A stretch of 32,000 nucleotides of DNA from an uncultured archaeon (GTDB lineage: Archaea > Iainarchaeota > Iainarchaeia > Iainarchaeales > DATDZZ01): contig CAYJVY010000009.1 of assembly GCA_964373795.1 (NCBI GenBank), forward strand, positions 30,001 through 62,000, given 5' to 3'. The notes under the pieces were generated by a model that ran no database searches, had not been told where the DNA came from, and saw nothing but the letters and a program-made list of their open reading frames with translations. Made by a program: the position numbers and the translations under genes. Below are positions 4,701 through 30,186 of this stretch, piece after piece. Positions within the stretch are counted from its first letter, which is position 1. Each line of letters begins with the position of its first letter.

Positions 4701-6656
4701 TTATTTGGTTTCTAATTTTTTTATTTTTTTTTCTAATTCGTTCATTGTGTTAACTTTTTTTTCTAAACCACTTAAAATTGATTCAATGTGTTCTTCAAAG
4801 TCTTCTTCTATTTTCTTTAAATCAAGCGACTTTTTTTTCAGCATTGAAACAGAGTCATCAATCATTACTTTTTGTTTTAAAACCTCTTTTTTAATTTCTT
4901 CAACTTTTTTATCTACTGGATCTAATTTTTTCTTTACAATTGAGTCGAATTCGTCTTTGAATTTTTCAAGTGACTGCATTTCTTGAAGTAATCTATCTAT
5001 GTCGAGTTTTTCTAGAGCCATGTCTTTGAATTTTTTTAATTCTTCTGGGCTTGCAGCTTTTCTTGTAGAAGCGTTCTCTTCAATTGCTTTATTCATTTCA
5101 ATTTTCATTTCTTCAAATTTTAGTTTCATTAAATCTTCAATGTACTTTCCCATTATTGTTTCATCAATTGATTTTCCTATTTCATCTATTGCATCCATTT
5201 TTCTTTTCACTTGGTTATCCCATTCTTTTAACTTTAAGGAAATGATATCATTTATTTGGTTTTCAATTCTTGTTAAATCAAGTGATTCTTGTAATTTAAT
5301 TAATTCTTCTGTTTTCAAATCAATTCTTGTTTCTAATTCAACTATTCTGTTTTCATTTGATTGTTCAATGTCGTATAATTTTTTGTCTGCTATTTGGTTT
5401 ATTTTTTGTTCAATTTTTTCTGGAGTAATTGTTTCTTTTAATTGTCTTAATTCATCTAATCTGTGTTTTAGTTCTTGTGAAAGATTTCCAACGCTTTCAG
5501 AAACCATTGATTTAACTTTTTCGTCAACAGTTCTTGGAGTTAATCCTTGGTTTAATTCTTTTAATTGAGTTAAATAGTCTTCAACTCTTCTAGTTATTTC
5601 TGCATTTTTTAAATTAATGCTTTCCTGAATTTTTTTATTTACTTCTTCAGGGTTTAAAGTTATTTCAATTTCTTTTGCTTTTTCAATGTTTCTTGAAACA
5701 ATTTCATCCATTTCTTTTGTTTTGTCTGAAATTATTCTGTCAATTCTTTGTCCAACTTTTTCTGGGTCTACTTTTGTTTCAAGTAATTCAAGTGAGTCAA
5801 GTTCTTTTTTTACTTGTTGTTCTAGTTCTTGAATTTTTTCACTTAATGCGAGTTCAACTTTTTCTTCAGTTCTTTTAACCAAGCTTTGAGCAACTGTATG
5901 CTCTAATTCTAATGCGCGGCTTACAGCTTCTTCTAATTGAATGCTTTTTTGTTTCATGTCTTCTATTGCGCCATTCATTTTGTCTTCTAAATCAGTTTTT
6001 TCTTTTTCTAAACTAGTTATATTTGTTGTAACCTCTGTTAACAATTCTTTTACTGTTCCTTGTTTTGCGTCAAGCTTTGCTAAATCTCCTTGCACTTTTA
6101 AATTTAATTGCTTTGCTTCTTCTAATGCGCTTATAACTTGTTTTTCGAATTGAGTTGTTTTTGTTTCAAGAACTGTGTTAATCTTGCTTGCCATTAATTC
6201 TTTTCTGGATTCAAATAATGCAGTAATTTTTCTTGATTCACTGTCAAATAAATCCACTATTCTTTTTTTTTCTAACTCCATTGAATTTGTTACTTTTTCT
6301 TCAATTATTGAATCAATGTCTTCTTTTAATTGCTTCATTTCTTTTAATTTTTCATTCATTGCCCCTAAAATTTCTGAACTCCACATAGTGCCTCTGTCAA
6401 CTGAAGGTGCTTGCACGCCAGGCCTTGAAGTAGGCTCTGTAGTAATTCCTAAATCAATTTTTGGTTTAGTAAAAGTAGTTCCTGTTTCAACTGGCTTTGA
6501 AGGATGTCGTTCGTTTTTCACTTGTTCAACTAATTTTTTTGCTTCAGCTCGAGAAAGATATGAACTTAATTTATCAATTATCTCATTATCTGTAACCCCT
6601 AAATCCATTAAACGTCTAATAGTATTTAGATAAACTTCAGTAGTTGTATCAGGCAT
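4701..6656 (-). CDS. Large K/E-rich coiled-coil protein with internal ~38 aa repeats, unknown function
   Basis: 651 aa. It has a short helical N-domain, a Pro/Thr linker, then heptad-like K/E/L/I-rich sequence. A TATA candidate GTTTAAATATAC lies about 30 nt upstream on the minus strand (about 6683-6694). All plus-strand ORFs inside it are F/S/L-rich mirror artefacts. Confidence 0.75.
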   Translation of the reverse strand: MPDTTTEVYLNTIRRLMDLGVTDNEIIDKLSSYLSRAEAKKLVEQVKNERHPSKPVETGTTFTKPKIDLGITTEPTSRPGVQAPSVDRGTMWSSEILGAMNEKLKEMKQLKEDIDSIIEEKVTNSMELEKKRIVDLFDSESRKITALFESRKELMASKINTVLETKTTQFEKQVISALEEAKQLNLKVQGDLAKLDAKQGTVKELLTEVTTNITSLEKEKTDLEDKMNGAIEDMKQKSIQLEEAVSRALELEHTVAQSLVKRTEEKVELALSEKIQELEQQVKKELDSLELLETKVDPEKVGQRIDRIISDKTKEMDEIVSRNIEKAKEIEITLNPEEVNKKIQESINLKNAEITRRVEDYLTQLKELNQGLTPRTVDEKVKSMVSESVGNLSQELKHRLDELRQLKETITPEKIEQKINQIADKKLYDIEQSNENRIVELETRIDLKTEELIKLQESLDLTRIENQINDIISLKLKEWDNQVKRKMDAIDEIGKSIDETIMGKYIEDLMKLKFEEMKIEMNKAIEENASTRKAASPEELKKFKDMALEKLDIDRLLQEMQSLEKFKDEFDSIVKKKLDPVDKKVEEIKKEVLKQKVMIDDSVSMLKKKSLDLKKIEEDFEEHIESILSGLEKKVNTMNELEKKIKKLETK

Positions 6657-6696
6657 TTAATTCACTGAAAAATTAACTCATTTCGTATATTTAAAC

Positions 6697-7010
6697 CCTG
6701 CGCCGTAAAATTAAATTCTGCCCTTTGCCGTCTTGTGCAGTTAGCATGAATCGTTTGGCTGGTTGGGCATATGCTCATGTGAGCATTCAGCTTCAAGGAA
6801 GCTTTTAGAAAAAGCTTCAGCAAAAGTTTTTGCCACAATTCAAATCAAAGATTTGAATGTGCATTCAAATACAAAGTATTTGAATTGCAACTTTTTTCCA
6901 AAAAGTTGGCTGAACCTTGCACGGCTGAACTGCGAAGAAAAGCTGGCAAAAGAAAGAAAAAGAAAGTTGTCGCGCTCGGTGAGCAACTGATTTAATGAAT
7001 TCGAGTTGTT
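6697..7010. ncRNA. Candidate structured non-coding RNA (class unassigned), GC-enriched island with five perfect hairpins
   Basis: G+C is locally much higher than the surroundings. Perfect hairpins occur at 6771-6786, 6799-6817, 6838-6858, 6863-6885 and 6888-6908. They are enclosed by long-range complementarity of 6724-6745 with 6924-6950. Confidence 0.4.
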
Positions 7011-7016
7011 TCGCTG

Positions 7017-7244
7017 TTAGAGTGAGACTAGTATTACGTTGTCTCCTCTTAAAACTATTTTTCCGTATTTTTTTTTGACTTCATTGTTTTCAAGTAAGTC
7101 TGCTTGATGGAGTATTAGGTTCATGTGTACATCGAATGCTTTTAGTGTTCCTCTTATTTGTCTTTCTCCTTTTAATTCAATTAGCACTGTTTTTCCAATT
7201 GAATCGCTTAAAAAATCAAATGGCCTTGATTGATCGGTTGTCAT
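7017..7244 (-). CDS. Sm-like archaeal protein (LSm/SmAP)
   Basis: 75 aa. Sm1/Sm2 motifs are present in VLIELKGERQIRGTLKAFDVHMNLIL...IVLRGDNVILVS. An AGGAG SD lies in the 12 nt gap after minD. Confidence 0.9.
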   Translation of the reverse strand: MTTDQSRPFDFLSDSIGKTVLIELKGERQIRGTLKAFDVHMNLILHQADLLENNEVKKKYGKIVLRGDNVILVSL

Positions 7245-7256
7245 GTTTTCTCTCCT

Positions 7257-8117
7257 TTATTTTTTTTTAAAAAATGAAATTATTTTTTCAATTAAACCCA
7301 TTTTTTTTGTTTCATTAGAACTTTGTGGAGTGCTTTGAGGTTGATCGCTTGAAGGCGTTTTTTTGAATAATCCTAGAAATCCTGTTTCTTGTTCTATTTT
7401 AACTTCTCTTCCAGTAAGTTTTTTAACTGTTTGGAAAATTGCTGTTGAAGCAATTGTTGAAGGTTTTCTTAGAATTACTGGTTGAACTCTTTCTTGTAGA
7501 AATGTTTTTCTTACTTCGTCGTCGAAAGGGATTACTCCGTAAATTGGTAGTTCAAGCATTTTGCTTACATCTATTTCGTTTATTTCTCCTTTTTCAAATC
7601 TTGCAAAATTTATTATTACTCCTAGTGGTTTGTTTCCTAGTCTTAGGCAAACTTTTTTTGTTTTAATTAAATCAGCTATTGCTGGAGAAATAGGCATTGT
7701 AATTAGTAAAGAGGTTTCTGCTGCTGAAATTGAAGCCATTACGTCTTTTCCTATTCCTGCAGGACCGTCTAATAAAATGAAGTCAAATTGTTTTTTAATT
7801 GAAGAAATAACGTCAACTAGTTTTTCTGAGTCAACTCTTCTATATGAATCAAGACTTAAACCGCTTGGAATGAATTTAGTGTTTGCAGGGCCATCATATA
7901 TTGCGTCTTCAATTACTGCTTCTTCTAATAATACATCGTGTAAAGTAATTGGAGAGGATTGCATTCCGAGCAAGAGTGAAAGATTTGCCATTGCAATATC
8001 TGTGTCAATCATGCATATATTAAATCCTGCTTTGGATAAAGCTATTCCGAGGTTTGCTACTAGAAAAGTTTTTCCTACTCCTCCTTTTCCTGAAACAAAT
8101 GAAATTGTTTTACCCAT
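7257..8117 (-). CDS. minD: MinD/ParA-family P-loop ATPase with C-terminal extension ending in an amphipathic helix
   Basis: It has the deviant Walker A SGKGGVGKT, DTD, and LLDGPAG (Walker B region). The C-terminal low-complexity QPQSTPQSS stretch is followed by MGLIEKIISFFKKK, which looks like a membrane-targeting helix. Confidence 0.85.
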   Translation of the reverse strand: MGKTISFVSGKGGVGKTFLVANLGIALSKAGFNICMIDTDIAMANLSLLLGMQSSPITLHDVLLEEAVIEDAIYDGPANTKFIPSGLSLDSYRRVDSEKLVDVISSIKKQFDFILLDGPAGIGKDVMASISAAETSLLITMPISPAIADLIKTKKVCLRLGNKPLGVIINFARFEKGEINEIDVSKMLELPIYGVIPFDDEVRKTFLQERVQPVILRKPSTIASTAIFQTVKKLTGREVKIEQETGFLGLFKKTPSSDQPQSTPQSSNETKKMGLIEKIISFFKKK

Positions 8118-8138
8118 GTTACATCAATATTGTTTAAA

Positions 8139-8471
8139 TTAATTTAATATTTTTTGTTTTGAGTTTTTTTGTAAAAATATTTCTATTTCTTTTGCAATTG
8201 ATTCTAGTTCGCATTTCGCTAAATCGCTTGCAGCTGTTATAATGTAAATTTTTTCATTCCATGGAATTAGCATTTTCCATGAATGTGATTTAATTAAAAC
8301 TATTTCTGATTTAGGCATTTCGGAATTAATGTAATTAAATAATGCTGTTCCACTTAAAGCGTCTTTTTGTCCAGACCCATTACTTGAAGCTAATGCAGAT
8401 CCATTTAAGTTTGAAATAGTAATTGATTCAACCAAGTGTTTTTTTTGTAACTCGTTTAGAAATTGTTTCAA
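8139..8471 (-). CDS. Roadblock/LC7 (MglB-like) domain protein; the frame stays open upstream to 8615 and the likely real start is upstream
   Basis: LNELQKKHLVESITISNLNGSALASS...IVLIKSHSWKMLIPWNEKIYIITAAS fits the Roadblock/LC7 pattern. The track start is a TTG without an SD. See the finding on a possible ATA start at 8612. Confidence 0.6.
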   Translation of the reverse strand: MKQFLNELQKKHLVESITISNLNGSALASSNGSGQKDALSGTALFNYINSEMPKSEIVLIKSHSWKMLIPWNEKIYIITAASDLAKCELESIAKEIEIFLQKNSKQKILN

Positions 8472-8629
8472 GTCATCGGTTTCTAAATCAAAATAAGTTC
8501 TTTGACTGTAATCCCATAATAATTCAAATTGTTCTCTTGGAATTTGAGTATCATCTAAGTCTAAAATTTTTTCGGCAAGATGCCTAAATTTCTCTGCAAG
8601 CCTTGAAAATATGTTTTATCACCTTTTAT

Positions 8630-9124
8630 TTAAGAAATTTTTGATAGGCCTAACCTTTTTAAAACACTGTATTTTGATTCATTTTTTTTCTCTAAAGCAT
8701 CTTGTAAAGCTTCCAAAGCATATTTTGAATCAAATGCATTTACTTTAATTGAAGTAAATTCTTTTTTCGAAATTGATTTATTTAAGAGGATTTTTTCATT
8801 AAATGCTGTGATTAAATCCATTTGCTGAGTTGACAAAAAATAAATATCAATTATTGCATTGGAAGCACCAAAACCATTAAAAATCATTGGCAATGCTTTG
8901 TCTCCAAAGAATTGCTTTGAGTATTTTAAGTAATCATATATTGCGCCAATGATTTCTCCTTTTTTTAAAAAAATTAATGCTTCTTCTAATCCGTCAAATC
9001 CTTCAATTGTTGCAACAATGTATCCTGTGAACACTACATCACTTAATTCATTTAGTTTTGACACTAAATTAAAATTCTTTAAAAGCAATCCTTCTTCTCT
9101 TGCAGTTCCAGTCGGTAAATTCAT
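8630..9124 (-). CDS. Conserved hypothetical protein, weakly PATAN/DUF4388-like
   Basis: 164 aa. FTGYIVATIEGFDGLEEALIFLKKGEIIGAIYDY...GDKALPMIF resembles the PATAN-type pattern. The assignment is by eye only. Confidence 0.45.
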   Translation of the reverse strand: MNLPTGTAREEGLLLKNFNLVSKLNELSDVVFTGYIVATIEGFDGLEEALIFLKKGEIIGAIYDYLKYSKQFFGDKALPMIFNGFGASNAIIDIYFLSTQQMDLITAFNEKILLNKSISKKEFTSIKVNAFDSKYALEALQDALEKKNESKYSVLKRLGLSKIS

Positions 9125-9203
9125 AAAATCAATAAAAGTAATGCTTTTGCAGTTTTTATTTGTAACGCTTTCAAAAAAAGTTTTAATTATTTTCCTTTAA
9201 ATT

Positions 9204-10250
9204 TTATGAATTCAATTTTTTTAATGCTTCAACTGCATCTTTGCGAACCTCTTCACTTTCATCTTTCAACAATTCTTTAATGAATGTAATACTTCTTTTT
9301 GAATCTAAAGCTCCTAAAGTGTGAACTGCTTGAGCTCTTACCTCTGCGTTTTCATCTTTCAATCTTTCTTCAATTAATAGAATACTTTTATGTGAATTCA
9401 TTAATCCTAAAAGTTCCACAGCAATAACTCGAATAAATGGAATTGAAATGTTTAGCAAGCCTTCAACAATTGGAGTGAAAAGCAATAATTTAATTAACTC
9501 AAATAAATCCTCTGATTGCATACTTTTTGTTATTAGGTATTTTCTTTCCGATTCAAGTTTTTTTAACGTCTGCTCTGTTTCCATTCTAACATTTTCATCT
9601 CCATCTTTCAATCTTTTTTCTATTAATGGAATACTATGAATTGAATTAAGTTCCCTTAAAGCGTTAATTGCATTATTTCGAACCTCTGCAGAAGAATCTT
9701 TCAATCTTTTTTCAATTAATGGAATACTTTTAATTGCATTTAAATTTTTTAATGCAGATACTGCAGCTTCGCGAACTATGGATTCAGGGTCTTTAAGCAT
9801 TTCTTCAATTAATGGAATATTTTTTTCATTTTGAGATTTTCCTAATGCATATATAGCATTGCATCTAGACATCATTCCTTTTTCTTGTAACATTTCTTTT
9901 AGTAATGGATTATCTTTAGTGTAATCAAACTGTCCCAAGGTTTGAGCTGCTTGTCCTCTAATGGTTTCATCTGGGTCTTCTAATAACTTTTCAATATTTG
10001 GAATGCTTTTAGTATATCTTAACCTAGACAAAGCGAACAATGCATTCAATCTAACATTTCCGTCTTTATCCCGCAATAGATTTTCAATTAAATCACCACT
10101 TTTTAGTTTTAGTCTTTGAAATAAAAGAACCCCTTTTAACCTATTTCTTGCATTAGAGTCAATTAGCATTTTTTTTAATTGCTGAATATCTTTTGATTCA
10201 TTAAATAAATTAGGGTCAACTTTTGGCGACTCTATTTTTCTTGATTTCAT
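9204..10250 (-). CDS. HEAT-repeat (PBS-lyase type) protein
   Basis: About 9 tandem ~31 aa units of the form IPxLxxxLxDxxxxVRxxAxxALxxL, e.g. IPLIEKRLKDSSAEVRNNAINALREL and IPLIEKRLKDGDENVRMETEQTL. Confidence 0.85.
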   Translation of the reverse strand: MKSRKIESPKVDPNLFNESKDIQQLKKMLIDSNARNRLKGVLLFQRLKLKSGDLIENLLRDKDGNVRLNALFALSRLRYTKSIPNIEKLLEDPDETIRGQAAQTLGQFDYTKDNPLLKEMLQEKGMMSRCNAIYALGKSQNEKNIPLIEEMLKDPESIVREAAVSALKNLNAIKSIPLIEKRLKDSSAEVRNNAINALRELNSIHSIPLIEKRLKDGDENVRMETEQTLKKLESERKYLITKSMQSEDLFELIKLLLFTPIVEGLLNISIPFIRVIAVELLGLMNSHKSILLIEERLKDENAEVRAQAVHTLGALDSKRSITFIKELLKDESEEVRKDAVEALKKLNS

Positions 10251-10291
10251 TTATTTAATTAGTTTTAACTCGAATAAAAGCTTTTGCAAGA

Positions 10292-10756
10292 TTATTTTCC
10301 TAAAACTATTACTTGATCTGCAGTGTTTTTCAATGCTACTGCGGAGGCTTCTTCAGCTAATACTACTATTGTTTCTTTTCCGTATTGCTTGGCTTTAACA
10401 ATTGAAGGCAAGAAATCAGAATCCCTTGTTACAACTGCTATTACTTCAATTGATGGATTGAAAATTGTCTCAGTTACTTCTACAGCCATTGCAACATCTA
10501 CGTCTCCAACAGTTATAATTGATTCAAATCCTTGATTGACTACTGCTTCAACTAATTTGTTTGAAGCATATTGGTTTAGAAAAACTTTGCCTATTTTTAT
10601 TACTCCAAATTTTTTAACTGCCTTAGTAATGTCTTCTAAATTAATTCCTAGTTCTTTTCGCAAAATATTTGGACCATCAACAAAAACTGCAATGCTTTTG
10701 CTTTTCTTTTGCAGAGAAATTACTTCTTGAAGCTTTTTTTTAACTGATTCAAACAA
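10292..10756 (-). CDS. NYN-domain (LabA/DUF88-like, TIGR00288-type) predicted RNase
   Basis: IAVFVDGPNILRKE...GDVDVAMAVE...VTRDSDFLPSIVKAKQYGKETIVV matches the archaeal TIGR00288/NYN pattern. Confidence 0.82.
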   Translation of the reverse strand: MFESVKKKLQEVISLQKKSKSIAVFVDGPNILRKELGINLEDITKAVKKFGVIKIGKVFLNQYASNKLVEAVVNQGFESIITVGDVDVAMAVEVTETIFNPSIEVIAVVTRDSDFLPSIVKAKQYGKETIVVLAEEASAVALKNTADQVIVLGK

Positions 10757-15071: not shown

Positions 15072-15773
15072 ATGAACAGACTAGTAATTGAAAGAACTAA
15101 GACAGGTGTTCTAGGATTTGATAAGTTACTTGGCGGAGGAATTCCAAGAGGAAACCTTGTAGTACTAGCAGGTGATCCTGGATCTGGGAAAACCATTTTC
15201 AGTATTCAGTTTTTATATGAAGGAATAATGCAATTTAAAGAACCAGGAATTTTTATTAGTTTAGAGGAATCTCCTGACACAATTATTAAAACTGCTGCTC
15301 TTTTTGGATGGGATTTAAATCCATTAATTGAAAAAGGATTGCTAAAAATTTACACAATAGAGTTATATGATTTTGATAAACTGAAAAACACTATTGAAGA
15401 CTTGATTTCTTCAATTGAAGCTAAAAGACTTGTACTAGATCCAGGAGTAATTTTTAGATTATTCTTTGAAAGAGAATTAGAGGCAAGAAAAAGAATTCTT
15501 TCACTTGGAAAACTAATTAAAAAACTGAATTGCACTACAGTTATAACAAATGAAATTGCTTTAGATCAACAGCAATCCTTGTTTGGTTTAGAAGAATACG
15601 TTGCAGATGGAGTAATTCTCTTATTTCACACTCGCTTAGGAAACAAATATGTTAGATCAATTGGAATTCTGAAAATGAGAGGCACAGACATAACTGAAAA
15701 AATTCATTCAGTTCAAATAACTAAAAACGGTATAAACATTTCAAGCGGCAGACCAATATTCGAAGAACTTTAA
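15072..15773 (+). CDS. Single-domain KaiC/RecA-superfamily ATPase (ArlH/FlaH-like)
   Basis: It has GFDKLLGGGIPRGNLVVLAGDPGSGKT (Walker A), RLVLDPG (Walker B-like) and GILKMRG. The 233 aa length matches ArlH-type proteins. An AGGTGA SD lies 4 nt upstream. Confidence 0.8.
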   Translation: MNRLVIERTKTGVLGFDKLLGGGIPRGNLVVLAGDPGSGKTIFSIQFLYEGIMQFKEPGIFISLEESPDTIIKTAALFGWDLNPLIEKGLLKIYTIELYDFDKLKNTIEDLISSIEAKRLVLDPGVIFRLFFERELEARKRILSLGKLIKKLNCTTVITNEIALDQQQSLFGLEEYVADGVILLFHTRLGNKYVRSIGILKMRGTDITEKIHSVQITKNGINISSGRPIFEEL

Positions 15774-15802
15774 TTCATCGGTAAAAAACGAAATTATTAC
15801 TC

Positions 15803-15819
15803 TTTTTTTATTTTTTTTT
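15803..15819 (+). terminator. Oligo-T terminator candidate (T7 A T9)
   Basis: Two long T runs lie 30-45 nt after the stop of 15072..15773. Archaeal RNA polymerase terminates at oligo-T. Confidence 0.45.
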
Positions 15820-15846
15820 AAAGCAATACATTTAAATATTCTTAAT

Positions 15847-15858
15847 CTTTTTATATAG
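15847..15858 (+). promoter_or_regulatory. TATA-box candidate (CTTTTTATATAG) plus AGGAGGT SD (15884-15890) for pilin B
   Basis: The A/T box lies about 25 nt upstream of the SD region, and the SD lies 7 nt before ATG 15898. Confidence 0.45.
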
Positions 15859-15897
15859 TAGTTAAAATATTGTTACAAGTTTTAGGAGGTAAAATGG

Positions 15898-16365
15898 ATG
15901 TTTAAACAAAAAGGTCAATCTGCTCTTGAGTATTTAATGACTTATGGATGGGCATTAGTAGTAATTGTTGTAGTAATTGGAGTTCTAGGTTTTTTAGGAG
16001 TATTCAATTTAGGTGGAACAATTGAATCTTGTACTGGAATGCCTTCTCAATTTCAATACTCGGCTCATAGATATAAAGCTGATGGAAACTTTATGTTAAC
16101 TTTTAATAATGGTTCAAATTATGATGTAAATGTTACTGCTTTAAGTGTTGGAGGAACATCCAAGACTCTTTCTCCAGCTGTGCAATTAGCTAAAGGAAAA
16201 GCTGGAACAGTTGGTTCTGGTGGTTATAAAACTGGGACAAGTGGAACTTCTTACAAAGTTGATGTAACCCTTACTTATGATGGATTAAAAGATGATGGAA
16301 CTATTGAACCAACTCAAGGCGCAAAAAAAGTTACAGGCGTGCAGTGTACAGGTAAATACGAGTAA
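15898..16365 (+). CDS. Archaeal type IV pilin-like protein (class III signal peptide), paralog B
   Basis: MFKQKG|QSALEYLMTYGWALVVIVVVIGVLGFLG is a class III signal peptide. Conserved Cys are at ESCTG and VQCTGKYE. It has the strongest SD in the window, which suggests a major subunit. Confidence 0.85.
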   Translation: MFKQKGQSALEYLMTYGWALVVIVVVIGVLGFLGVFNLGGTIESCTGMPSQFQYSAHRYKADGNFMLTFNNGSNYDVNVTALSVGGTSKTLSPAVQLAKGKAGTVGSGGYKTGTSGTSYKVDVTLTYDGLKDDGTIEPTQGAKKVTGVQCTGKYE

Positions 16366-16373
16366 ATTTTTTT

Positions 16374-16410
16374 GAATAGAACTTTTGTTCTATTCTATTC
16401 TTTTTCTTTT
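16374..16410 (+). terminator. Hairpin plus T-tract terminator candidate
   Basis: GAATAGAAC-TTTT-GTTCTATTC forms a 9 bp stem (16374-16395), followed by TATTCTTTTTCTTTT. Confidence 0.5.
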
Positions 16411-16422
16411 TAATTCGATTGC

Positions 16423-16430
16423 TTTAAATA
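16423..16430 (+). promoter_or_regulatory. TATA-box candidate (TTTAAATA) for 16461..16922
   Basis: It lies 31 nt upstream of the ATG. Confidence 0.4.
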
Positions 16431-16460
16431 CTTCTTACATATTTATTATTTTGATTTTTT

Positions 16461-16922
16461 ATGGGTTTTAAGTCTGAAGACGAAAAGAAACTGCAAAAAC
16501 TCACTTCTTATGCATGGGTTTTAGTATTAATTTTTATTTTACTTGCAGTAACTTTGTTTTTTACTGGATTTAAGTTAGTTAAACCAAAACCTAAATGCAT
16601 TGATTTCCCTGAATATTTAGTTTATGAAAAGCATTCTTTGAATGACAAAGGAGAGTTTTCTTTAGCTTTAACTAGTTCAAAAAACTTGACTCTGAGTTCA
16701 ATAGAACTTGATGGAGAATTGCTTGTTTTAGCTGATAAAAGCAAAAGCGTTGTTTCAGAAATAGCATTAACTAAAGACAAAAGCACCGAAATTAATGCTC
16801 TTGGATCGCCTCAAAAACAAGAAGAAAAAGAGTATTCAAAACAACTTAGATTAACTTATTTTTTTGAAGGCGAGAATAGAAAAATTGTTTCAATTGCTTC
16901 TTGCACTGGAGTAATTGAATAA
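16461..16922 (+). CDS. Pilin-paralog C with divergent N-terminus
   Basis: It is the same length (153 aa). TSYAWVLVLIFILLAV aligns with MTYGWALVVIV, and both Cys positions are conserved (PKCIDFPEYLVY, ASCTGVIE). The K-G/A|Q cleavage motif is missing. Confidence 0.6.
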   Translation: MGFKSEDEKKLQKLTSYAWVLVLIFILLAVTLFFTGFKLVKPKPKCIDFPEYLVYEKHSLNDKGEFSLALTSSKNLTLSSIELDGELLVLADKSKSVVSEIALTKDKSTEINALGSPQKQEEKEYSKQLRLTYFFEGENRKIVSIASCTGVIE

Positions 16923-16929
16923 CTCTGCC

Positions 16930-16962
16930 CTTTTCTTTTTCTTTAAAAAAGAAAAAGAAAAG
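16930..16962. terminator. Perfect 15 bp palindromic hairpin with AAA loop between convergent genes (bidirectional terminator candidate)
   Basis: CTTTTCTTTTTCTTT-AAA-AAAGAAAAAGAAAAG. Every position 16930-16944 pairs with 16962-16948. The sequence is T-rich when read on either strand. Confidence 0.55.
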
Positions 16963-17039
16963 TGTAAGTTGCCCAAAAGAAAGAGAAAGGAAAATGTAAG
17001 TTGCGCAAAAGAAAGAAAAGTGTAAATTGTCCCACAAAA
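16951..17039. repeat. Three imperfect tandem direct repeats (~26-32 nt) of consensus GAAAGAAAAGTGTAAGTTGCCCAAAA
   Basis: The cores are GTGTAAGTTGC at 16962, ATGTAAGTTGC at 16994 and GTGTAAATTGTC at 17020, each flanked by GAAAG/AAAAG runs. Confidence 0.6.
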
Positions 17040-17058
17040 GAATGCCCTTGATTTGGGT

Positions 17059-18057
17059 TTAAGTGAGTAAGCCTGCGAAAAAGAATAAGAATAATTCTCT
17101 TACTACAATGAATACTGTTAGTGAAACAATTAGTATTGGAATAAAGTATTTTAATCCTGTTTTTTCTTTTCCTGAATTTATTACTCCAATTGTCATGCTT
17201 GCAAAAATGCTTCCAACGAATAACACTAAATATGCAAAGAATAAAACAAATTCTGGATCTATTCCTCCACCTGAACCTGTTACTATTGGCACTGGGCTTT
17301 TGCTTAAAGCTTCTGGATTAATTCCTTCTCCAATGCCTGCTGTTTGAGCTGTAAGAGCTTGAACAATGAAAGTACTAATTCCTAAAAGAAATGGCCCTCC
17401 AAAAGCCGAGCCAAAAAAAATCAATAAAACATACATTGAAATGTTTGATTTAATTTCTGATTGAACTGATCTTTGTTGTCTTAAATCATTTGAAAGCTGT
17501 ACAAGCAAGTCAGCTATTTGTCCTCCACTGCTAACTCCTTTTGAAATAAGCCAAACAGTTCTTTCCAAGATTTTTGACTTAATTTGGTTGGGTAATTCAA
17601 GTAAAGCTGTTTCAATTCTTTCTCCTGCTAAAATTTTTTGAGTTGCTTTTTTTAATTCTCGTTCTAATGCACCAAATTCCGGGCGAGATGCAATTAGTAA
17701 AGCTCTTTCAGTTGTTAATCCTGACTTAATATGTGACGCAATTAATTGAAGCGCGTCAGGTAAAATGTTTTCAACAAATTTTCCATTTGATTCAGCTGAA
17801 AGATCCATCCAATAATAAGGCAAGGCAAAGATTATTATACTTAAAATAATGAATGACAGTAAAAAGAATGGCAGGCTTAATTCAAATAATAAAAATAAAT
17901 TAATTGTTAAAATAAATCCTAAAATCAAGCTAAAAATAGTTAAAAAGCCTACAAATATTTCTTCATCTCCTCTAAAATCCATGAATTCAAATTCTCTTTT
18001 AAATGCGTTCAAAATATTTTTTGGCAGTATTTTTCCAATTTTTTTGTAGTAACTCAT
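17059..18057 (-). CDS. Type II secretion system F-domain platform protein (TadC/ArlJ C-half-like)
   Basis: 332 aa. N-terminal TM helices are followed by a cytoplasmic helical domain (LPDALQLIASHIKSGLTTERAL...) and C-terminal TM helices. Confidence 0.8.
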   Translation of the reverse strand: MSYYKKIGKILPKNILNAFKREFEFMDFRGDEEIFVGFLTIFSLILGFILTINLFLLFELSLPFFLLSFIILSIIIFALPYYWMDLSAESNGKFVENILPDALQLIASHIKSGLTTERALLIASRPEFGALERELKKATQKILAGERIETALLELPNQIKSKILERTVWLISKGVSSGGQIADLLVQLSNDLRQQRSVQSEIKSNISMYVLLIFFGSAFGGPFLLGISTFIVQALTAQTAGIGEGINPEALSKSPVPIVTGSGGGIDPEFVLFFAYLVLFVGSIFASMTIGVINSGKEKTGLKYFIPILIVSLTVFIVVRELFLFFFAGLLT

Positions 18058-18068
18058 TTAACTCACTT

Positions 18069-18959
18069 TTAATCTGAAATTAAATTTGGTCTAGCAGATT
18101 TCATCATTCCAAGGTACATGAATTGAGAAATTATAATGAATGCTAATAAAATCCAAAAAACTATTTCACCTATTTTTACTTGAGGAAAAGAACTTAACAC
18201 AATTAAAAAAGTTATTCCAAGAGAAGGAATTATTACTCCTAACATCATGTAAACCAATGAAAGTAACTTCATTTTAGATCCGTATTCATTTATTTGAACT
18301 GTTTGTTCTTTAACCATTGAATCAACTATTTCAGCTAAAACAACAGTTATTTCTGCTCCAGATCTTAGTCCTGTGACTATTTGATCAATGCTTCTTCTAA
18401 AAAAATATGAAGGCGTTTCTTCACCCATTTCTTTTAAAGCAGTGTCTTCTGGTTCTCCGCTATTGATTTTGTTTATAAGTGTTTTGAATTCATTTGTTAA
18501 TTGTCCATAATCTCCTTCTGCTACAACACTTAGTGAATCAAATAATGTTACGCCTGATTTTAATTGAACAAGCATTGTTCTTAATGCAAACACTAAACTT
18601 TTTTCAATTTCTCTAACCTTTTTTTTAACTAAAATTGTTGGATAAAAAATTACTTGAATGAAAATTAGTAATGCAAAAAAAAACCCGCCTGCAAATGAAA
18701 GAACAATCATTTGTTCAGGAAAATATTTTGAAGAAATTAATAAAATAAATGCTGCTGCAAAAGAAAAGTAAAAAATTGTTAAAATTAATGTAATTGCACA
18801 GTATTCTTTTACTTCAAATTTTAGTTTTGCTTGCTTTAATTTTAGTTCTAGATCTGGAAAAATTGAAGTAATTAAAAAACTTAATCCGTAAAATTTTGGC
18901 GCAATTTTTTTAAGAAGTTTAATTGGAATTGGATTGAATGGAATTAATTCTGGATTCAT
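18069..18959 (-). CDS. Type II secretion system F-domain platform protein (TadB/ArlJ N-half-like)
   Basis: 296 aa with the same architecture (LVFALRTMLVQLKSGVTLFDSL...). It lies 11 nt upstream of the second T2SF gene. Confidence 0.8.
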   Translation of the reverse strand: MNPELIPFNPIPIKLLKKIAPKFYGLSFLITSIFPDLELKLKQAKLKFEVKEYCAITLILTIFYFSFAAAFILLISSKYFPEQMIVLSFAGGFFFALLIFIQVIFYPTILVKKKVREIEKSLVFALRTMLVQLKSGVTLFDSLSVVAEGDYGQLTNEFKTLINKINSGEPEDTALKEMGEETPSYFFRRSIDQIVTGLRSGAEITVVLAEIVDSMVKEQTVQINEYGSKMKLLSLVYMMLGVIIPSLGITFLIVLSSFPQVKIGEIVFWILLAFIIISQFMYLGMMKSARPNLISD

Positions 18960-18965
18960 TTTGAT

Positions 18966-20489
18966 TCACTTTTTTGTTTTGGCTTCTTCTTTTTTTGGCT
19001 TTAAATCTTTTTCAACCATTTTAATTACTTCATTTTCATCCATGTAGTATTGAGCCATTATTTTTCCAACGTCTTGAATTGAGTGAATGTCTTTTTTTAC
19101 AAGCCATTCTAGAATTGCTTGCTTTGTTTTTAATTCTTTTTTCATTTCATCTAATGTTAGCCCTGTATGCAATGATAATTCGTCAAATAATCTAATGCTT
19201 TGAGTGTGTTGAGTTATAGAGTCAATTGAAGGCTTCCACCTGTATAATACATTTGCTTTAACTACTTCTTGTCCATCTCCTCTTCTTTCTGGAATGAATT
19301 CAGCTAATTGAAGAATTCTTCTTGCACCAATTCTTCTGTTTCTAAACATTACTACATTTAAGTGAACTGCTTCAAGCATGGCTGCAGGAATATTTACTGG
19401 AGGACTAGTTAACCTACTAATTGTTTCATCTGCAGTGTTTGCATGCACGCTTGTATAAACTGAGTGACCTGTATGCATTGCTTCAAACATTACTTCTGCT
19501 TCTCTTTGTCTTCTAATTTCTCCTACAATTATCCTGTCAGGCCTCATTCTAAGAGAGTTAACTAATAAGTCAAGCATTGAAACTTCTCCTTTTCCTTCAG
19601 GGTTTGGTTCTCGAGTAGTTAATGGCACCCAATGAAGATATTCAGGCAAGGTTAATTCTCTTGTGTCTTCAATTGTTAAAACTCTGTGATTTGGTTGAAT
19701 AAAAGGCAAGCAAATTCCCATCATTGTTGTTTTCCCTGAAGCCGTTCCCCCACTAAAAATAATGTTTAATTCAAATTGCATTGCAAGCCAAATTAAACTC
19801 ATTATTTCAGAGTTAACAGTGTTGTTTCTAATTAAATCTGTTACAGTCCAAGGATCTCTTCTAAATCTTCTAATAGTAATAGTGTTTCCTTTAGTTGAAA
19901 TAGGAAATAAAGTTGCATTTGCTCTGTCTCCTGTAACTAAATGCGCATCAAGTAATGGATTTAAAATTGTTATTTGTTTTCCTACCCTTCTAGCAATAAT
20001 GCTTGAATAGTTTTGAATCTCTGATTCAGGTGAAATGAATACATTTGTTTTAAGCCAAGAATATTTTTTATGATAAACCCATACAGGTTCTTTTGAAGCA
20101 TTTACAACTATTTCTTCCAAGTCTTTATCAGCTAAAAGGAATTCAATTTGTCCTAATCCAAGCATTTCGTTTAACAAAATAGCTATTAATGAATTAGTTT
20201 TTTCATTTGACATGTTTGGCAAGTTTTTTTGCAACACATTTAATGCTTTTTCCTTGAATTGTTCTCGTATTTTTGAAATAAATTTTGGGTCAATAATTTT
20301 TTCTGAATGAACTGGGATTTCTAAAATAATTGATTGCTTTAAATTGTCAAGCAATGCTTTTGTTCCAGGGCCAAAATCAGGGGTACTTAAAACATAGCTT
20401 CTAACGAATTCATTTTTTTCTTCAACAATGTTTACATCTAATTTAAGGTTTTCAAACCCTATTTCATAGGTTTCAATTACTTTAACCAT
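18966..20489 (-). CDS. Type II/IV secretion-family assembly ATPase (FlaI/ArlI, PilB, CpaF-like)
   Basis: It has Walker A SGGTASGKTT, Walker B/Asp box RMRPDRIIVGEIRRQREA and His box HTGHSVYTSVHAN. Confidence 0.92.
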   Translation of the reverse strand: MVKVIETYEIGFENLKLDVNIVEEKNEFVRSYVLSTPDFGPGTKALLDNLKQSIILEIPVHSEKIIDPKFISKIREQFKEKALNVLQKNLPNMSNEKTNSLIAILLNEMLGLGQIEFLLADKDLEEIVVNASKEPVWVYHKKYSWLKTNVFISPESEIQNYSSIIARRVGKQITILNPLLDAHLVTGDRANATLFPISTKGNTITIRRFRRDPWTVTDLIRNNTVNSEIMSLIWLAMQFELNIIFSGGTASGKTTMMGICLPFIQPNHRVLTIEDTRELTLPEYLHWVPLTTREPNPEGKGEVSMLDLLVNSLRMRPDRIIVGEIRRQREAEVMFEAMHTGHSVYTSVHANTADETISRLTSPPVNIPAAMLEAVHLNVVMFRNRRIGARRILQLAEFIPERRGDGQEVVKANVLYRWKPSIDSITQHTQSIRLFDELSLHTGLTLDEMKKELKTKQAILEWLVKKDIHSIQDVGKIMAQYYMDENEVIKMVEKDLKPKKEEAKTKK

Positions 20490-20503
20490 TTTTTCAACCT
20501 CGT

Positions 20504-21940
20504 TTATTTTTTTTCATCCTCTATATTTACTTCAAGCGCCAATAAAATTGGTTCGCCTATGGGAGGATAATTTATTTTAATTAAATTATTTTCCTCTAAA
20601 ACTTCTGCAATAACTGTAATTCTTTCACTTGGCAAGTTAAGTTCTTTTACTGCATCGCTTAATTTGATTTTTCCATTTTTTTTAACCAACAATAACACCT
20701 TGTCAAAATCTGTTGAAATTGTTTCTTTTTCTAAATTTTTTTCTACTCCTTTAAATTTTTCTTCTTTTTTAATTGTTCCAATGACTGATGAATCCAGTGA
20801 AACAACTAATGGTTCATGGATTTTTTCTCTTTTAGTTTCAGGTTTTGTGTCTTCAACTACTTTTCCTAAGCTAAGTTTTCCTTCTGGTTTAAAATCAGTT
20901 AACCTTTTTCCACTTAATGGCTTGGTTTTTGTTTCCTTTAAAGCCTTTGGCTTGTCTTCTTCATATTGCATTTCTTTTATTTCTTTTTCAATTTCTTCTT
21001 GGGTTTTTACTTCCGCTTTTTTTACTGCCTGTTTTTCTACTTGAATTGGTTGTCTTTTAATTTCTTCTTTTACTGCTGCAGCTATTTCTTTAGCCATTAC
21101 TGAAACTTTTTTACTTGAAGTTCTTCTTTTTTGTGACTCTATCTCTAATGGCGCGTTAATTACTTCTTTTTTTATTTCTTCTTCACTTGGAATTACTTGT
21201 TTTATTCCTGTTTTAAATTCTTTTTTCCCTAGTTCCAGTAACATATTTTTTTGTCTGTATTGAATTAATTGTTGTCTTAATTCGGTTGTTTCGGAATCTT
21301 TTAGTTTTATTTTTTCTTTTAACTCATGGGTTTGGTTTTTGAGTTTTTCTAATTCGTTTTTTGTTTTTTCGTAATCTCTTTTTAACTTCATATAAGATTT
21401 GTTAATACTTGCAACATTTGGATTTGCTTTAAACTCTTTTTCAGCTTTAACTGTTTTAGGTAGCAATTCTTTTTTTCTAAAATTCAGTAAATTAATTTTT
21501 TGCTTGTATTCAAGCATTTTATTATTATAAGCAGTTTGTTTTCCATGGCTTCTTAAATACTCTACTTCTAATCCTAAAATTAATGCTTTAGTTTCTTTTA
21601 TCTCTTTTTCATAGTCTTCAATTGATTTATTTTTCTTTTGAATTTTGTTATAAATTTGAATTGGTTTTCCTTTTGGTTTAATTTTCATTCCATGACTTAA
21701 TGCTTTTTTTTCTAGTTTTGAAATCTTTTTTTTAATATTTTTTTCAGCTTCTTTGGAAGTTGATTTCCTTTTCTTTTCATTTTTAATATTTTTTTCAATT
21801 TCTTTTTCTTCTTCTTTTTTTTCTTGTTTTTCTTGAATTTGATTGGTTTCATTTGAAATTGTTGTTTCTTTTTTTAATCCAATTAAGCTTAGAAGTTGTT
21901 CTATAAAACCATTTTTAGGTTTTTCATTTGTTTCAGGCAT
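20504..21940 (-). CDS. Lys/Glu-rich coiled-coil protein with C-terminal winged-helix-like domain, unknown function
   Basis: 478 aa. The N-terminus has an amphipathic GFIEQLLSLIGL, followed by about 380 aa of K/E low-complexity sequence. The C-terminus DKVLLLVKKNGKIKLSDAVKELNLPSERITVIAEVLEENNLIKINYP looks like a wHTH. Confidence 0.6.
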   Translation of the reverse strand: MPETNEKPKNGFIEQLLSLIGLKKETTISNETNQIQEKQEKKEEEKEIEKNIKNEKKRKSTSKEAEKNIKKKISKLEKKALSHGMKIKPKGKPIQIYNKIQKKNKSIEDYEKEIKETKALILGLEVEYLRSHGKQTAYNNKMLEYKQKINLLNFRKKELLPKTVKAEKEFKANPNVASINKSYMKLKRDYEKTKNELEKLKNQTHELKEKIKLKDSETTELRQQLIQYRQKNMLLELGKKEFKTGIKQVIPSEEEIKKEVINAPLEIESQKRRTSSKKVSVMAKEIAAAVKEEIKRQPIQVEKQAVKKAEVKTQEEIEKEIKEMQYEEDKPKALKETKTKPLSGKRLTDFKPEGKLSLGKVVEDTKPETKREKIHEPLVVSLDSSVIGTIKKEEKFKGVEKNLEKETISTDFDKVLLLVKKNGKIKLSDAVKELNLPSERITVIAEVLEENNLIKINYPPIGEPILLALEVNIEDEKK

Positions 21941-21993
21941 ATTCTCACTGTATTTAATAAGTTTTTGTGGTATTTATTTCTTTTCAATTAAAT

Positions 21994-22872
21994 CTATGAT
22001 TTTTCTGTTCTTAATTCATGGTCTCTTACTTTAATGAATGTATTTGGTAGTCTAATATGTGGAGCAGCATTAGCATCATCTCCAAAATCTATTCCTGACA
22101 TTAAGTCAACTCCAACTGAATTGTTGTTTGTAATAGTTAACTTGCTGTTGTCAAAAACTATTTCAATATCGTTTCCTGATTCCCCTGAAGTATTAATTGT
22201 TATTGTAAACTTTTTTGAAGCATCAATGTTTGTAAAGGAAACATTTGTTTCAGGAATTTTGTTGCTATTTCTAACAATTAATTCAATGTTTAATGCTTTT
22301 AAGCAATTATTACAAGTTGGCACGGAAGCCGGATTTGTTTGAATTGATTCATAGGATTGATTTTGCAGAGTTAAATCTAAAAAATATGAATTAAAATCTA
22401 GTCTGCTTGGAGAATAAATTATTGAATTGTTTATTCTTTTTCCTTGAGTGAAAACATTTGGATGGCTTACATTAAAATCGTATGGCTCCACTATTAAATC
22501 GAGTGAATCATTTAAGTTGTAGGATAAGTTTACATCTAAATTGTCTTTATATCCTTCAAGAAATAAATTGTAATTATCTAAATATATTTTAAGGTTAGTA
22601 AATTTGTTGTCTTCTTTTTTCTTTGAAAGAGTTTCAGTTAAAGCAATTGTTGTAGGAGTTTTATTTATCTTTAATGCAGAGACATTTTCTAAAATGTCTT
22701 GGAAATTATCTTCAATGTTTTCATATTTCATTGAAACATTGTCTATTCCTATTATGTCTTTTTTGAATGCGTCTGCTTGTTTAACGTTTTCTTTAACTAT
22801 TTGACTTAACTGTAATACAACTAACGCTAGAATTAAAACTGAAAACGTTAACAATAACCCTTTACTATTCAT
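21994..22872 (-). CDS. Class III signal-peptide (pilin-like) protein, ~292 aa
   Basis: The probable start is MNSKG|LLLTFSVLILALVVL at 22872, where ATGAATAG overlaps the upstream stop. The track start 22899 adds 9 codons. The protein is N-x-S/T rich. Confidence 0.6.
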   Translation of the reverse strand: MNSKGLLLTFSVLILALVVLQLSQIVKENVKQADAFKKDIIGIDNVSMKYENIEDNFQDILENVSALKINKTPTTIALTETLSKKKEDNKFTNLKIYLDNYNLFLEGYKDNLDVNLSYNLNDSLDLIVEPYDFNVSHPNVFTQGKRINNSIIYSPSRLDFNSYFLDLTLQNQSYESIQTNPASVPTCNNCLKALNIELIVRNSNKIPETNVSFTNIDASKKFTITINTSGESGNDIEIVFDNSKLTITNNNSVGVDLMSGIDFGDDANAAPHIRLPNTFIKVRDHELRTEKS

Positions 22873-23302
22873 TTTTAATCCACGCCCAATATTCTGCATT
22901 ATAGTACTTGCTTATTTCATTGTCTTTAAATGCTAAAAATAATCTTCTTCCTTTTACTACGTCTTTATCAGTTAAATTAATTGAAGTAAAACCTAGATTT
23001 AATTCATTTTTTTTCTTGAATTCGTTTCCTGAAAACTCGAATTCTTCTATTTTCATTTTCCATTGAAATTGAATTGGCATTACTGCATTAATTTCTTTTT
23101 CAATTTCAGTTCCATCAAGTTTTTGAAGAACTCCTTTTGAATCCAAAATGCTTAGCGAATCATTCATTATTCTTTTTAATGAAACAGTGTTAAATGAATC
23201 TGTTGTTGATCCAAACAAGGAATGAGTTAAAACCGCAAAAATTGTTATAGTTAGAAAAACTGCCATGAATGCATCTAAACTAAACACATATCCTTTTTTC
23301 AT
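22865..23302 (-). CDS. Class III signal-peptide (minor pilin-like) protein, 145 aa
   Basis: MKKG|YVFSLDAFMAVFLTITIFAVL. Confidence 0.6.
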   Translation of the reverse strand: MKKGYVFSLDAFMAVFLTITIFAVLTHSLFGSTTDSFNTVSLKRIMNDSLSILDSKGVLQKLDGTEIEKEINAVMPIQFQWKMKIEEFEFSGNEFKKKNELNLGFTSINLTDKDVVKGRRLFLAFKDNEISKYYNAEYWAWIKNE

Positions 23303-23306
23303 TTCA

Positions 23307-23807
23307 TCAACTCTTGAATAATGTTAAATTTAGTTTTGCTGGTTTTCCATTTAATTCAATAATTCTTTGAGTTGAAATAGAGTATTTAGGGTTAGTAATT
23401 GTTACTCCTTTTTCAAAAACTGTTTGAAAGTCTTGCTCGATTTTAAGATAGTAATCGTATTGAGGAATTAGCATTTTTTCTTTTGATTTATTGTAATCCA
23501 TTGAAGCAAGTTTGTTTAACTTGCTTTGATTTAAAACTCTTTTTTCATTGACTAATCCAATTGAATTAATTTGATTTAAATCCAGGTTTTGCCAATTTGA
23601 TGGATTGCCTGTTGTTAAAGTTAAAATGTTTGAAGAATTAAATAAATTTGACTCCATTTTAATTAATGTTTTTTCCTCTGAAACTGCATTAATATGATTA
23701 TTTAATGAAATCAGTAAATAAAAAATTAATACAAGAAATATAACTAAAGCAAATAATAAGTCATACATTATTGCCTGGCCTTTTTCTTTGCTTGACTTGT
23801 TAAGCAT
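23307..23807 (-). CDS. Class III signal-peptide (minor pilin-like) protein, 166 aa
   Basis: SKEKG|QAIMYDLLFALVIFLVLIFYLL. It overlaps the upstream gene by 8 nt. Confidence 0.6.
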   Translation of the reverse strand: MLNKSSKEKGQAIMYDLLFALVIFLVLIFYLLISLNNHINAVSEEKTLIKMESNLFNSSNILTLTTGNPSNWQNLDLNQINSIGLVNEKRVLNQSKLNKLASMDYNKSKEKMLIPQYDYYLKIEQDFQTVFEKGVTITNPKYSISTQRIIELNGKPAKLNLTLFKS

Positions 23808-24873: not shown

Positions 24874-24877
24874 TTTC

Positions 24878-29787: not shown

Positions 29788-30186
29788 CTAATTTAATATT
29801 TTTAGAAACTCTTTTGAGGAAACAATTCTTGTTTTTCTGAATTTTATTAAATTCAATAAATCATTGTCATTGGAAACAATGAAATCAGCATTTGCTTCTA
29901 AAGCACATTCGATTATTTTGTTGTCGTCAGGATCTCTCTTAACAACATTGACTTTTATTTTTGGTTCAATTATTTTGGAAAAACTTGTTATTAGTGCAAG
30001 TTGAGCTTCAACTTTTTCTTTTGGTTCTTTAAATTTTGTTAAAAGTTTTTCTTCAACTTCTTTCAATATTTCTGTAGAAACAAAATTTGTGAATCTCTCT
30101 TGAATCGCCATTCTAACAACTTTATTAGCCGCGCCTTTTGTTAGTATGGAAGAAATGTACACATTCGAGTCAAGAACGGTTTTCAT
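29788..30186 (-). CDS. vapC: PIN-domain toxin (VapC-like, TIGR00305-type)
   Basis: VLDSNVYISSIL..., acidic residues in EILKEVEEKL, and DPDDNKIIECALEANADFIVSNDNDLL. Confidence 0.85.
   Translation of the reverse strand: MKTVLDSNVYISSILTKGAANKVVRMAIQERFTNFVSTEILKEVEEKLLTKFKEPKEKVEAQLALITSFSKIIEPKIKVNVVKRDPDDNKIIECALEANADFIVSNDNDLLNLIKFRKTRIVSSKEFLKILN

Follow-up and report, generated by a model that had tools for sequence, protein, structure and literature searches.

A Roadblock-fold protein and a DUF2226 protein as candidate partners of MinD in a conserved gene cluster of DPANN archaea

The gene cluster described here lies in a 32-kb window of archaeal DNA with a low guanine-cytosine (GC) content (~30%), where six co-directional open reading frames (ORFs) occupy positions 7017-10756 of the minus strand. 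In the direction of transcription they encode an NYN-domain protein, a HEAT-repeat protein, a DUF2226 protein, a Roadblock-like protein (RBL), an archaeal MinD ATPase and an LSm protein. Comparison with related loci reveals a conserved, operon-like core, (NYN)-DUF2226-RBL-MinD-LSm, and as a matter of conserved gene neighbourhood the pairing of a Roadblock protein with MinD has good support. From this gene order we infer that RBL and DUF2226 are dedicated partners of MinD in a switch or positioning module, a reading to which we give a probability of about one half. The intergenic gaps from NYN to LSm are 41, 79, 17, 21 and 12 nucleotides (nt) when RBL is taken to begin at an ATA codon (see below), exactly reproducing the six co-directional minus-strand genes with gaps of 12 to 79 nt of the original prediction for this DNA.

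That prediction named a lack of linkage in related genomes as a ground for rejecting it, and a neighbourhood survey of ~40 loci from Iainarchaeota/Diapherotrites and Micrarchaeota shows that the linkage is conserved. The loci came from a scan of species-representative genomes with MinD, a metagenome scan with a DUF2226 alignment, the contigs of RBL family members and two long Iainarchaeota contigs; profile searches were run over all their ORFs. With the caveat that the loci are not phylogenetically independent and that several are near-duplicates, each of the 36 loci with RBL has DUF2226 as the next gene upstream. Of the 33 that reach far enough downstream, 29 continue from RBL to MinD, one of them after an extra gene. 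LSm, often in overlap with MinD, is the next gene wherever a related locus reaches that far. NYN precedes DUF2226 in roughly half of the loci from Iainarchaeota and in all seven distant loci that include the upstream sequence (L007, L035, L036, L037, L042, L043 and, nearer, L040). The RBL family has been found only in this gene context. Close relatives are annotated as Candidatus Diapherotrites or Iainarchaeum, a distant member (MBI1973944.1) as Candidatus Micrarchaeota, and genomic GC contents span 30-56%. Recurrence of this order in two phyla of DPANN shows the arrangement to exceed chance.

The most informative loci are the distant contigs. Their GC content is 52-56% compared with 30% in the window, their flanking genes are different (TatD, LPG synthase, Nre, AspRS, EamA, glyoxalase) and adjacent stop and start codons often overlap by 4 nt, the RBL stop and MinD start included. 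Changed composition, changed flanks and overlapping genes together argue for a real operon and not merely an inherited order. RBL and DUF2226 of the distant loci are 24-32% identical to their counterparts in the window, whereas the range for MinD, LSm and NYN is 43-59% (43-47% for MinD). RBL and DUF2226 therefore evolve faster than MinD, as one would expect if they were adaptors or regulators.

Turning to the individual components, RBL was both shortened in existing gene models and hard to recognise by sequence. The ORF tool and public gene calls make it a protein of 110 amino acids (aa) starting at a TTG at 8471. The frame is open for 47 codons upstream of this TTG, and the residues encoded there align with the N-termini of orthologues, which are 146-175 aa long. 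The sole start-like codon downstream of the in-frame upstream stops is an ATA at 8612-8610. Sequence reading places the Shine-Dalgarno-like hexamer GGTGAT, a good anti-Shine-Dalgarno match, 5 nt upstream of it (8618..8623, minus strand), and an independent assembly (L039) has the identical ATA and the identical GGTGAT. RBL thus appears to start at the non-canonical ATA at 8612 and to be shortened to 110 aa by gene callers. Of the 'Roadblock' gene proposed earlier at 8139..8612 (minus strand) the span stands, while the listed length of 110 aa gives way to 157 aa, with 47 more conserved residues.

The Roadblock fold that had been suspected for this gene is borne out by modelling. An AlphaFold2 (AF2) model built from a 34-sequence alignment has a mean predicted local distance difference test score (pLDDT) of 88.6, above 94 over residues 50-150, and its topology is a-b-b-a-b-b-b-a with a long last helix; the Roadblock domain corresponds to ~8145-8477. 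Foldseek comparison of the model with the PDB gave 75 matches at E <= 0.001, and the best 50 of the 75 are all Roadblock/LC7 structures, including LAMTOR2/p14, Myxococcus xanthus MglB, Roadblock proteins of Thorarchaeota and Prometheoarchaeum, dynein LC7 and a Streptomyces Roadblock domain. The best figures are an E-value of 3e-5, a probability of 1.00 and a target-normalised template modelling score of up to 0.74. Judged by its modelled structure, then, RBL is a Roadblock-fold protein and founds a new sequence family inside the Roadblock/LC7 superfamily. By likeness to other Roadblock proteins it is presumably a dimer.

At the sequence level RBL has no Pfam or NCBIfam match, and even the family profile finds no sequence match in the PDB beyond chance hits. 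Pfam Robl_LC7 (PF03259) is matched below threshold by four of 34 RBL members (best E 0.004) and by the window RBL not at all, so that RBL fails the gathering threshold of that family; one of the 34 members touches LAMTOR5. An hhalign comparison of the RBL profile with human LAMTOR2 (5x6u_B) aligns the b1-b2-a2 core with 38% identity over 37 columns, a result that is not significant (E 0.023). The family is also small, a HMMER scan of 1.84 billion cluster representatives yielding 42 clusters only. Word-indexed homologue searches with the 110-aa RBL and 164-aa DUF2226 queries retrieved the queries alone, and relatives were found only with the full HMMER scan or an alignment as query.

To the Roadblock domain RBL adds a conserved N-terminal extension of ~45 aa (8472..8612, minus strand), defined from alignment column statistics, hydrophobic moment (muH) and the AF2 model. 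In this extension an amphipathic helix of basic character, h-[KR]-x-h-A-x-[KR]-h-L, precedes an acidic segment, D-x-D-D-T-x-x-P-x-E-Q. Conservation by column is 65% and 59% for the two K/R positions, 85% for D, 65% for T and 71% each for P and Q. The helix has a muH of 0.54, and AF2 places helices in this region at pLDDT 66-79. The extension is a candidate MinD-contact or activation peptide. Short and often basic N-terminal peptides are what MinE, ParB and PomX use to stimulate hydrolysis by ParA/MinD ATPases.

The identification of the next gene as MinD is secure. The 286-aa protein (7257..8117, minus strand) scores 248.6 bits against TIGR01969, above the curated cut-off of 201.75, and its best PDB relative is Archaeoglobus fulgidus MinD-1 (1hyq, E 1e-54), alongside the MinDs of Pyrococcus furiosus and P. 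horikoshii (1g3q, 1ion). Alignment with 1hyq and 1g3q shows conservation of its deviant Walker A motif, SGKGGVGKT (8067-8093), and of the segments IDTDI and LLDGPAG, which together cover the signature lysine, the switch aspartates and Walker B. The C-terminal amphipathic helix noted in the original prediction, MGLIEKIISFFKKK (7260..7301, minus strand), has a muH of 0.55 and a net charge of +3, and orthologues keep equivalent helices such as GFISRLLNKLFKKN and PISRLIGAIASIFKKK; it is a predicted membrane-targeting sequence (MTS). Its sequence has every hallmark of a membrane-cycling ParA/MinD ATPase, namely the deviant Walker A, the switch aspartates and the amphipathic helix, and so the features of a dimer that binds membranes in an ATP-dependent way. 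In one relative (Candidatus Iainarchaeum, L001, 3345-5558) the orthologous MinD is a 737-aa ORF with a large intein-like insertion of homing-endonuclease type directly after GKGGVGKS; the MCM gene of L040 likewise carries an intein (Pfam Intein_splicing).

The 164-aa protein encoded at 8630..9124 (minus strand) is a short form of DUF2226. It scores 40.3 bits against Pfam PF09987 (cut-off 22), covering model positions 17-160 of 252, and 41 of 44 relatives match the same family. The PATAN/DUF4388-like character previously ascribed to it fares less well. DUF4388/PATAN (PF14332) is matched below threshold by five of the 44 relatives (at most 16 bits, where the cut-off is 25; E 0.013) and not at all by the window protein, although one public source names a relative 'DUF4388 domain'. 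A sequence search of the PDB with the protein gave chance hits only. The AF2 model has a pLDDT of 87.1, falling below 65 over the last ~25 residues, and a Foldseek search of the PDB, which may hold no PATAN structure, found nothing at E <0.1. In genomic terms DUF2226 adjoins RBL, always directly upstream, as PATAN genes adjoin Roadblock/MglB genes, of which they are known neighbours (PMC4316618). A distant relationship between DUF2226 and PATAN is possible but unproven.

Two features of DUF2226 are conspicuous in the family alignment: MNLPxG at the N-terminus is invariant, and FKKLGLxxLG at the C-terminus is conserved, the latter lying on the low-confidence and probably flexible tail. A literature search on DUF2226, of incomplete coverage, found nothing. 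The idea that RBL represents the C-terminal part of the 252-position DUF2226 model missing from the short form was discarded, a concatenate of DUF2226 and RBL matching positions 17-161 only; nor are the two homologous, as their profiles are unrelated (hhalign probability 0.4%). Longer forms of DUF2226 occur in L007 (448-1422, 324 aa) and L042 (4300-5004, 234 aa). The conserved 165-aa core of the L007 protein runs on into a proline-rich stretch of low complexity, which may be equivalent to the part of the Pfam model that the short form lacks.

If RBL and DUF2226 are indeed partners of MinD, RBL, as a dimer, would contact the ATPase through its basic N-terminal helix and the acidic DDTxxP motif and would tune the ATPase or membrane cycle, a role likened to those of MinE, ParB or PomX/Y for ParA/MinD ATPases and of MglB for the GTPase MglA. 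DUF2226 would serve as a co-regulator or cargo adaptor via its flexible, conserved C-terminal peptide. The HEAT protein would then be a lineage-specific add-on, with NYN and LSm as conserved, co-transcribed neighbours in the proposed operon. What the data show are the gene identities, the Roadblock fold, the conserved order and the conserved motifs; physical contacts, the direction of regulation and the cargo are the conjectural side of this scheme. A bolder version makes RBL the ATPase-activating, membrane-release partner of archaeal MinD, a functional analogue of MinE built on a Roadblock dimer with a basic N-terminal contact helix, which together with DUF2226 would give DPANN archaea a Min-like system that forms patterns by self-organisation; this we consider doubtful. 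It would answer to a gap in current understanding, ParA/MinD ATPases generally needing an activating partner and none being known for archaeal MinDs (10.1101/2020.04.03.021790, PMC11588486). Haloferax volcanii MinD4, which oscillates, appears to ride on an unidentified patterning system, and HVO_0596, the operon partner of MinD2 in the same organism, gave no phenotype (10.1101/2020.04.03.021790, PMC11588486).

Several observations weigh against a dedicated partnership with MinD. Four loci (L014, L020, L032, L033) have DUF2226-RBL without an adjacent MinD, and two others (L002, L010) have DUF2226 without RBL, the first of these keeping MinD-LSm. The non-independence and near-duplication of loci mentioned above also count here, as does the fact that the 20-kb neighbourhoods L040 and L041 place the cluster inside a long Iainarchaeota block. 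This runs through RIO1, eIF1A, DUF424, eIF2-beta, SPP, MCM, MetRS and aIF5A to the cluster and on to a TtuA-like PP-loop ATPase, L15e, Rpp14, proteasome alpha and SBDS. Of its members beyond the cluster, the PP-loop gene and L15e are present in the window as well. Because the region is a long housekeeping block, synteny confined to Iainarchaeota is weak evidence. To our knowledge, moreover, all characterised partners of Roadblock/LC7 proteins are GTPases or dynein, and a GTPase elsewhere in the genome is a possible partner for RBL.

The housekeeping block invites the explanation that the genes share no function at all, having hitch-hiked together in the operons of a reduced genome, with MinD acting alone or with unlinked partners as has been proposed for haloarchaeal MinDs. 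That much of the block (RIO1, eIF1A, MCM, MetRS, aIF5A, L15e, Rpp14, proteasome) is common to Iainarchaeota, that LSm, NYN and aIF5A are general information-processing genes, and the lack of phenotype for HVO_0596 would all fit. Yet the distant contigs replace the flanks and still keep the five core genes contiguous, often overlapping, and the confinement of the RBL family, as far as found, to this one context likewise counts against passive linkage. We therefore regard hitch-hiking as fairly improbable.

The other explanation suggested by these observations is that DUF2226 and RBL are a PATAN/Roadblock pair of the classical type whose target is a small Ras-like GTPase from another part of the genome, the adjacency to MinD and LSm having no direct functional meaning. 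The nature of the characterised Roadblock partners speaks for it, as do the top structural matches of RBL (MglB, LAMTOR2 and the Asgard Roadblock proteins) and the fact that the DUF2226-RBL pair is tighter (36/36) than RBL-MinD (29/33), four loci lacking an adjacent MinD. PATAN-MglB neighbourhoods, too, are known (PMC4316618). The original prediction that no GTPase is encoded nearby nevertheless holds. No small GTPase domain was found against Pfam among 38 ORFs of the window, which include 34 of its 36 non-overlapping ORFs of at least 55 aa (those unscanned being short antisense ORFs), or in the 20-kb neighbourhoods of L040 and L041. Given, in addition, the overlap of the RBL stop with the MinD start in distant lineages and the survival of the cluster through a change of both flanks, a GTPase in place of MinD as the target seems distinctly unlikely.

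Compared with characterised systems, the module resembles a hybrid of MglA/MglB (with PATAN) and MinDE and is a member of neither. As in the MglA/MglB systems of Myxococcus, Thermus and others, a Roadblock/LC7-fold protein lies beside a possibly PATAN-related protein and a membrane- or pole-associated P-loop NTPase switch. Here, however, the NTPase is a SIMIBI-class MinD ATPase and not a Ras-like GTPase, RBL falls under the Robl_LC7 threshold and has a 45-aa N-terminal extension, and the PATAN relationship is unproven. With MinCDE the module shares a MinD bearing a deviant Walker A and a C-terminal amphipathic membrane helix, and a small, presumably dimeric alpha/beta partner encoded alongside, whose basic N-terminal helix recalls MinE architecture. 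The partner here has a Roadblock fold instead, the third component is DUF2226, and no cluster protein matches MinE or MinC in Pfam at E-values of up to 1-10.

Among archaeal proteins, MinD4 and MinD2 of H. volcanii belong to the same MinD family, have an MTS-type C-terminus and have no known MinE-like activator. Their neighbours are different, being che/arl genes and HVO_0596, with no Roadblock or DUF2226 partner reported. More widely, PomXYZ, McdAB, ParC/ParP, FlhG/FlhF and TadZ each combine a ParA/MinD ATPase with small dedicated partners that activate it via basic N-terminal peptides and link it to cargo, as is proposed here; a coiled-coil protein nearby (see below) is reminiscent of PomX/PomY, but the partner folds in our case are Roadblock and DUF2226. 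The recently described archaeal Dip system is similar in being a three-gene operon for a Min-like oscillator at the membrane, in which an NTPase drives the oscillation and a small partner takes this NTPase off the membrane. It consists of the GTPase DipA, the DUF2073 protein DipB and the Zn-ribbon protein DipC and was found mostly in Euryarchaeota and, among DPANN, in Nanohalarchaeota alone (PMC13228585). The cluster is not a Dip divisome-positioning system, since the DipA, DipB and DipC domains are absent from it and the families are entirely different. The same survey suggests that Iainarchaeota and Micrarchaeota are without Dip (PMC13228585).

RBL and DUF2226 are the first concrete, conserved candidates for partners of an archaeal MinD. 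Should RBL prove to regulate MinD, the scope of Roadblock/LC7 proteins would widen from GTPases (and dynein) to SIMIBI ATPases, with a bearing on the evolution of eukaryotic Roadblock-GTPase platforms, and a first view would be had of cell organisation in Iainarchaeota and Micrarchaeota. Practical limits are set by the host organisms, which are largely uncultivated, and by the small size of the RBL family. A literature search for a Roadblock-MinD module found no description of one, although its coverage was incomplete and surveys based on arCOGs may mention such a pairing.

The outer members of the core are readily classified. In the window the cluster opens with the gene for a 154-aa NYN-domain protein (10292..10756, minus strand) that scores above the curated cut-off of TIGR00288 (194.1 bits against 178.45; Pfam NYN, E 6.6e-23). 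The last gene encodes a 75-aa archaeal LSm/Sm-like protein (7017..7244, minus strand; Pfam LSM, E 4.2e-22, 78.1 bits against a cut-off of 23.4), which is slightly under the cut-off of NCBIfam NF001963 (95.4 against 101). Their presence raises the further possibility that the module gives RNA metabolism a spatial order, with an LSm/NYN RNA-processing assembly tethered or positioned at the membrane by MinD and its partners. NYN and LSm do flank the module in both phyla despite differing outer flanks, MinD and LSm often overlap, and in L035 a KH-domain gene comes after LSm. On the other hand, roughly half of the loci from Iainarchaeota lack NYN, neither a domain fusion nor any other direct tie was seen, and both LSm and NYN occur almost universally in archaea and serve general roles, all of which makes a spatial role in RNA processing very unlikely.

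The remaining gene of the six encodes a 348-aa HEAT-repeat protein (9204..10250, minus strand; Pfam HEAT_2, E 2.9e-48; HEAT, E 4.6e-39). Ten repeat motifs, in units of ~31 aa, can be counted, one more than the nine given before. Its earlier inclusion among the core members cannot be upheld, as it is absent from almost all orthologous clusters: its position between NYN and DUF2226 is unique to the window and is occupied by no HEAT gene in any related locus. A 189-aa HEAT-like gene is, however, found directly after LSm in L018 (8103-8669) and L040 (12103-12672), which represent another lineage of Iainarchaeota, and this recurrence at another position marks the HEAT protein as a recurrent but optional accessory.

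Downstream of LSm on the same strand, after 360 nt, lies a gene for a 651-aa coiled-coil protein (4701..6656, minus strand) that belongs to no Pfam or NCBIfam family. Homologues are found 0.4-4 kb downstream of LSm in at least ten Iainarchaeota loci, for example L002 (9209-10597), L012 (6398-7963) and L015 (10793-12436). Proteins of this family are 450-650 aa long; each starts with a helical domain of ~50 aa, which a disordered linker and the motif LWEKGILxTVDxKL separate from the coiled coil. The coiled-coil protein is a loosely associated neighbour of the cluster and might, speculatively, act as scaffold or cargo. Departures from the core order bring in other genes. In L014 (2218-6345) a gene for a 990-aa secreted protein replaces MinD after DUF2226-RBL, unrelated genes do so in L020, L032 and L033, and in L002 (4804-7807) a TspO-like gene and a lipoprotein gene stand between DUF2226 and MinD.

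On the other side, beyond NYN, the window continues with genes for aIF5A, an agmatinase-like protein and MetRS and, further on, with a type IV pilus locus. The pilus-like locus (15072-24900) comprises a KaiC/FlaH-like ATPase, two TadC-like T2SSF proteins, a PilB-like T2SSE ATPase and several ORFs, some small and some large, that match no family, and is followed by a gene for a 681-aa MG2-domain protein. A link between this locus and the cluster had been entertained in the original prediction, the module positioning or regulating the pilus as TadZ/FleN-type ATPases do. The KaiC-like, TadC-like and PilB-like genes begin 4.3 kb away, and FleN/MinD ATPases (arCOG00589) and Roadblock proteins (arCOG02603) have each been reported with archaeal type IV pilus loci (PMC4858521). 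The aIF5A, agmatinase-like and MetRS genes intervene, however, and in none of the related loci does the sequence up to 6-10 kb from the cluster contain a homologue of the window's pilus genes. As pilus genes are not near the cluster elsewhere, genomic context gives the link no support and we hold it to be highly improbable.

Transcription units in the window were deduced from gene spacing and Shine-Dalgarno sites because promoter scans were uninformative. A scan for sigma-70 promoters, a model irrelevant for archaea, fell below shuffled expectation. The TATA-like CTTTTATT occurs upstream of NYN, HEAT and DUF2226, and across the window it is not enriched (12 found, 9.4 expected). RBL and LSm have strong Shine-Dalgarno sequences, with gaps of 12-21 nt; the LSm start, 12 nt past MinD, is served by a GGAG Shine-Dalgarno-like sequence. 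Scans of the whole window for transfer RNAs and Rfam families gave zero matches. The 360-nt intergenic region between LSm and the coiled-coil gene (6657-7016) is non-coding, has no Rfam match and shows no conservation among related loci; it is slightly more GC-rich and contains short inverted repeats. Elsewhere in the window, at 29788-30464 (minus strand), an overlapping toxin-antitoxin pair is encoded, consisting of a PIN-domain toxin of 132 aa and a MazE/AbrB-type antitoxin of 92 aa.

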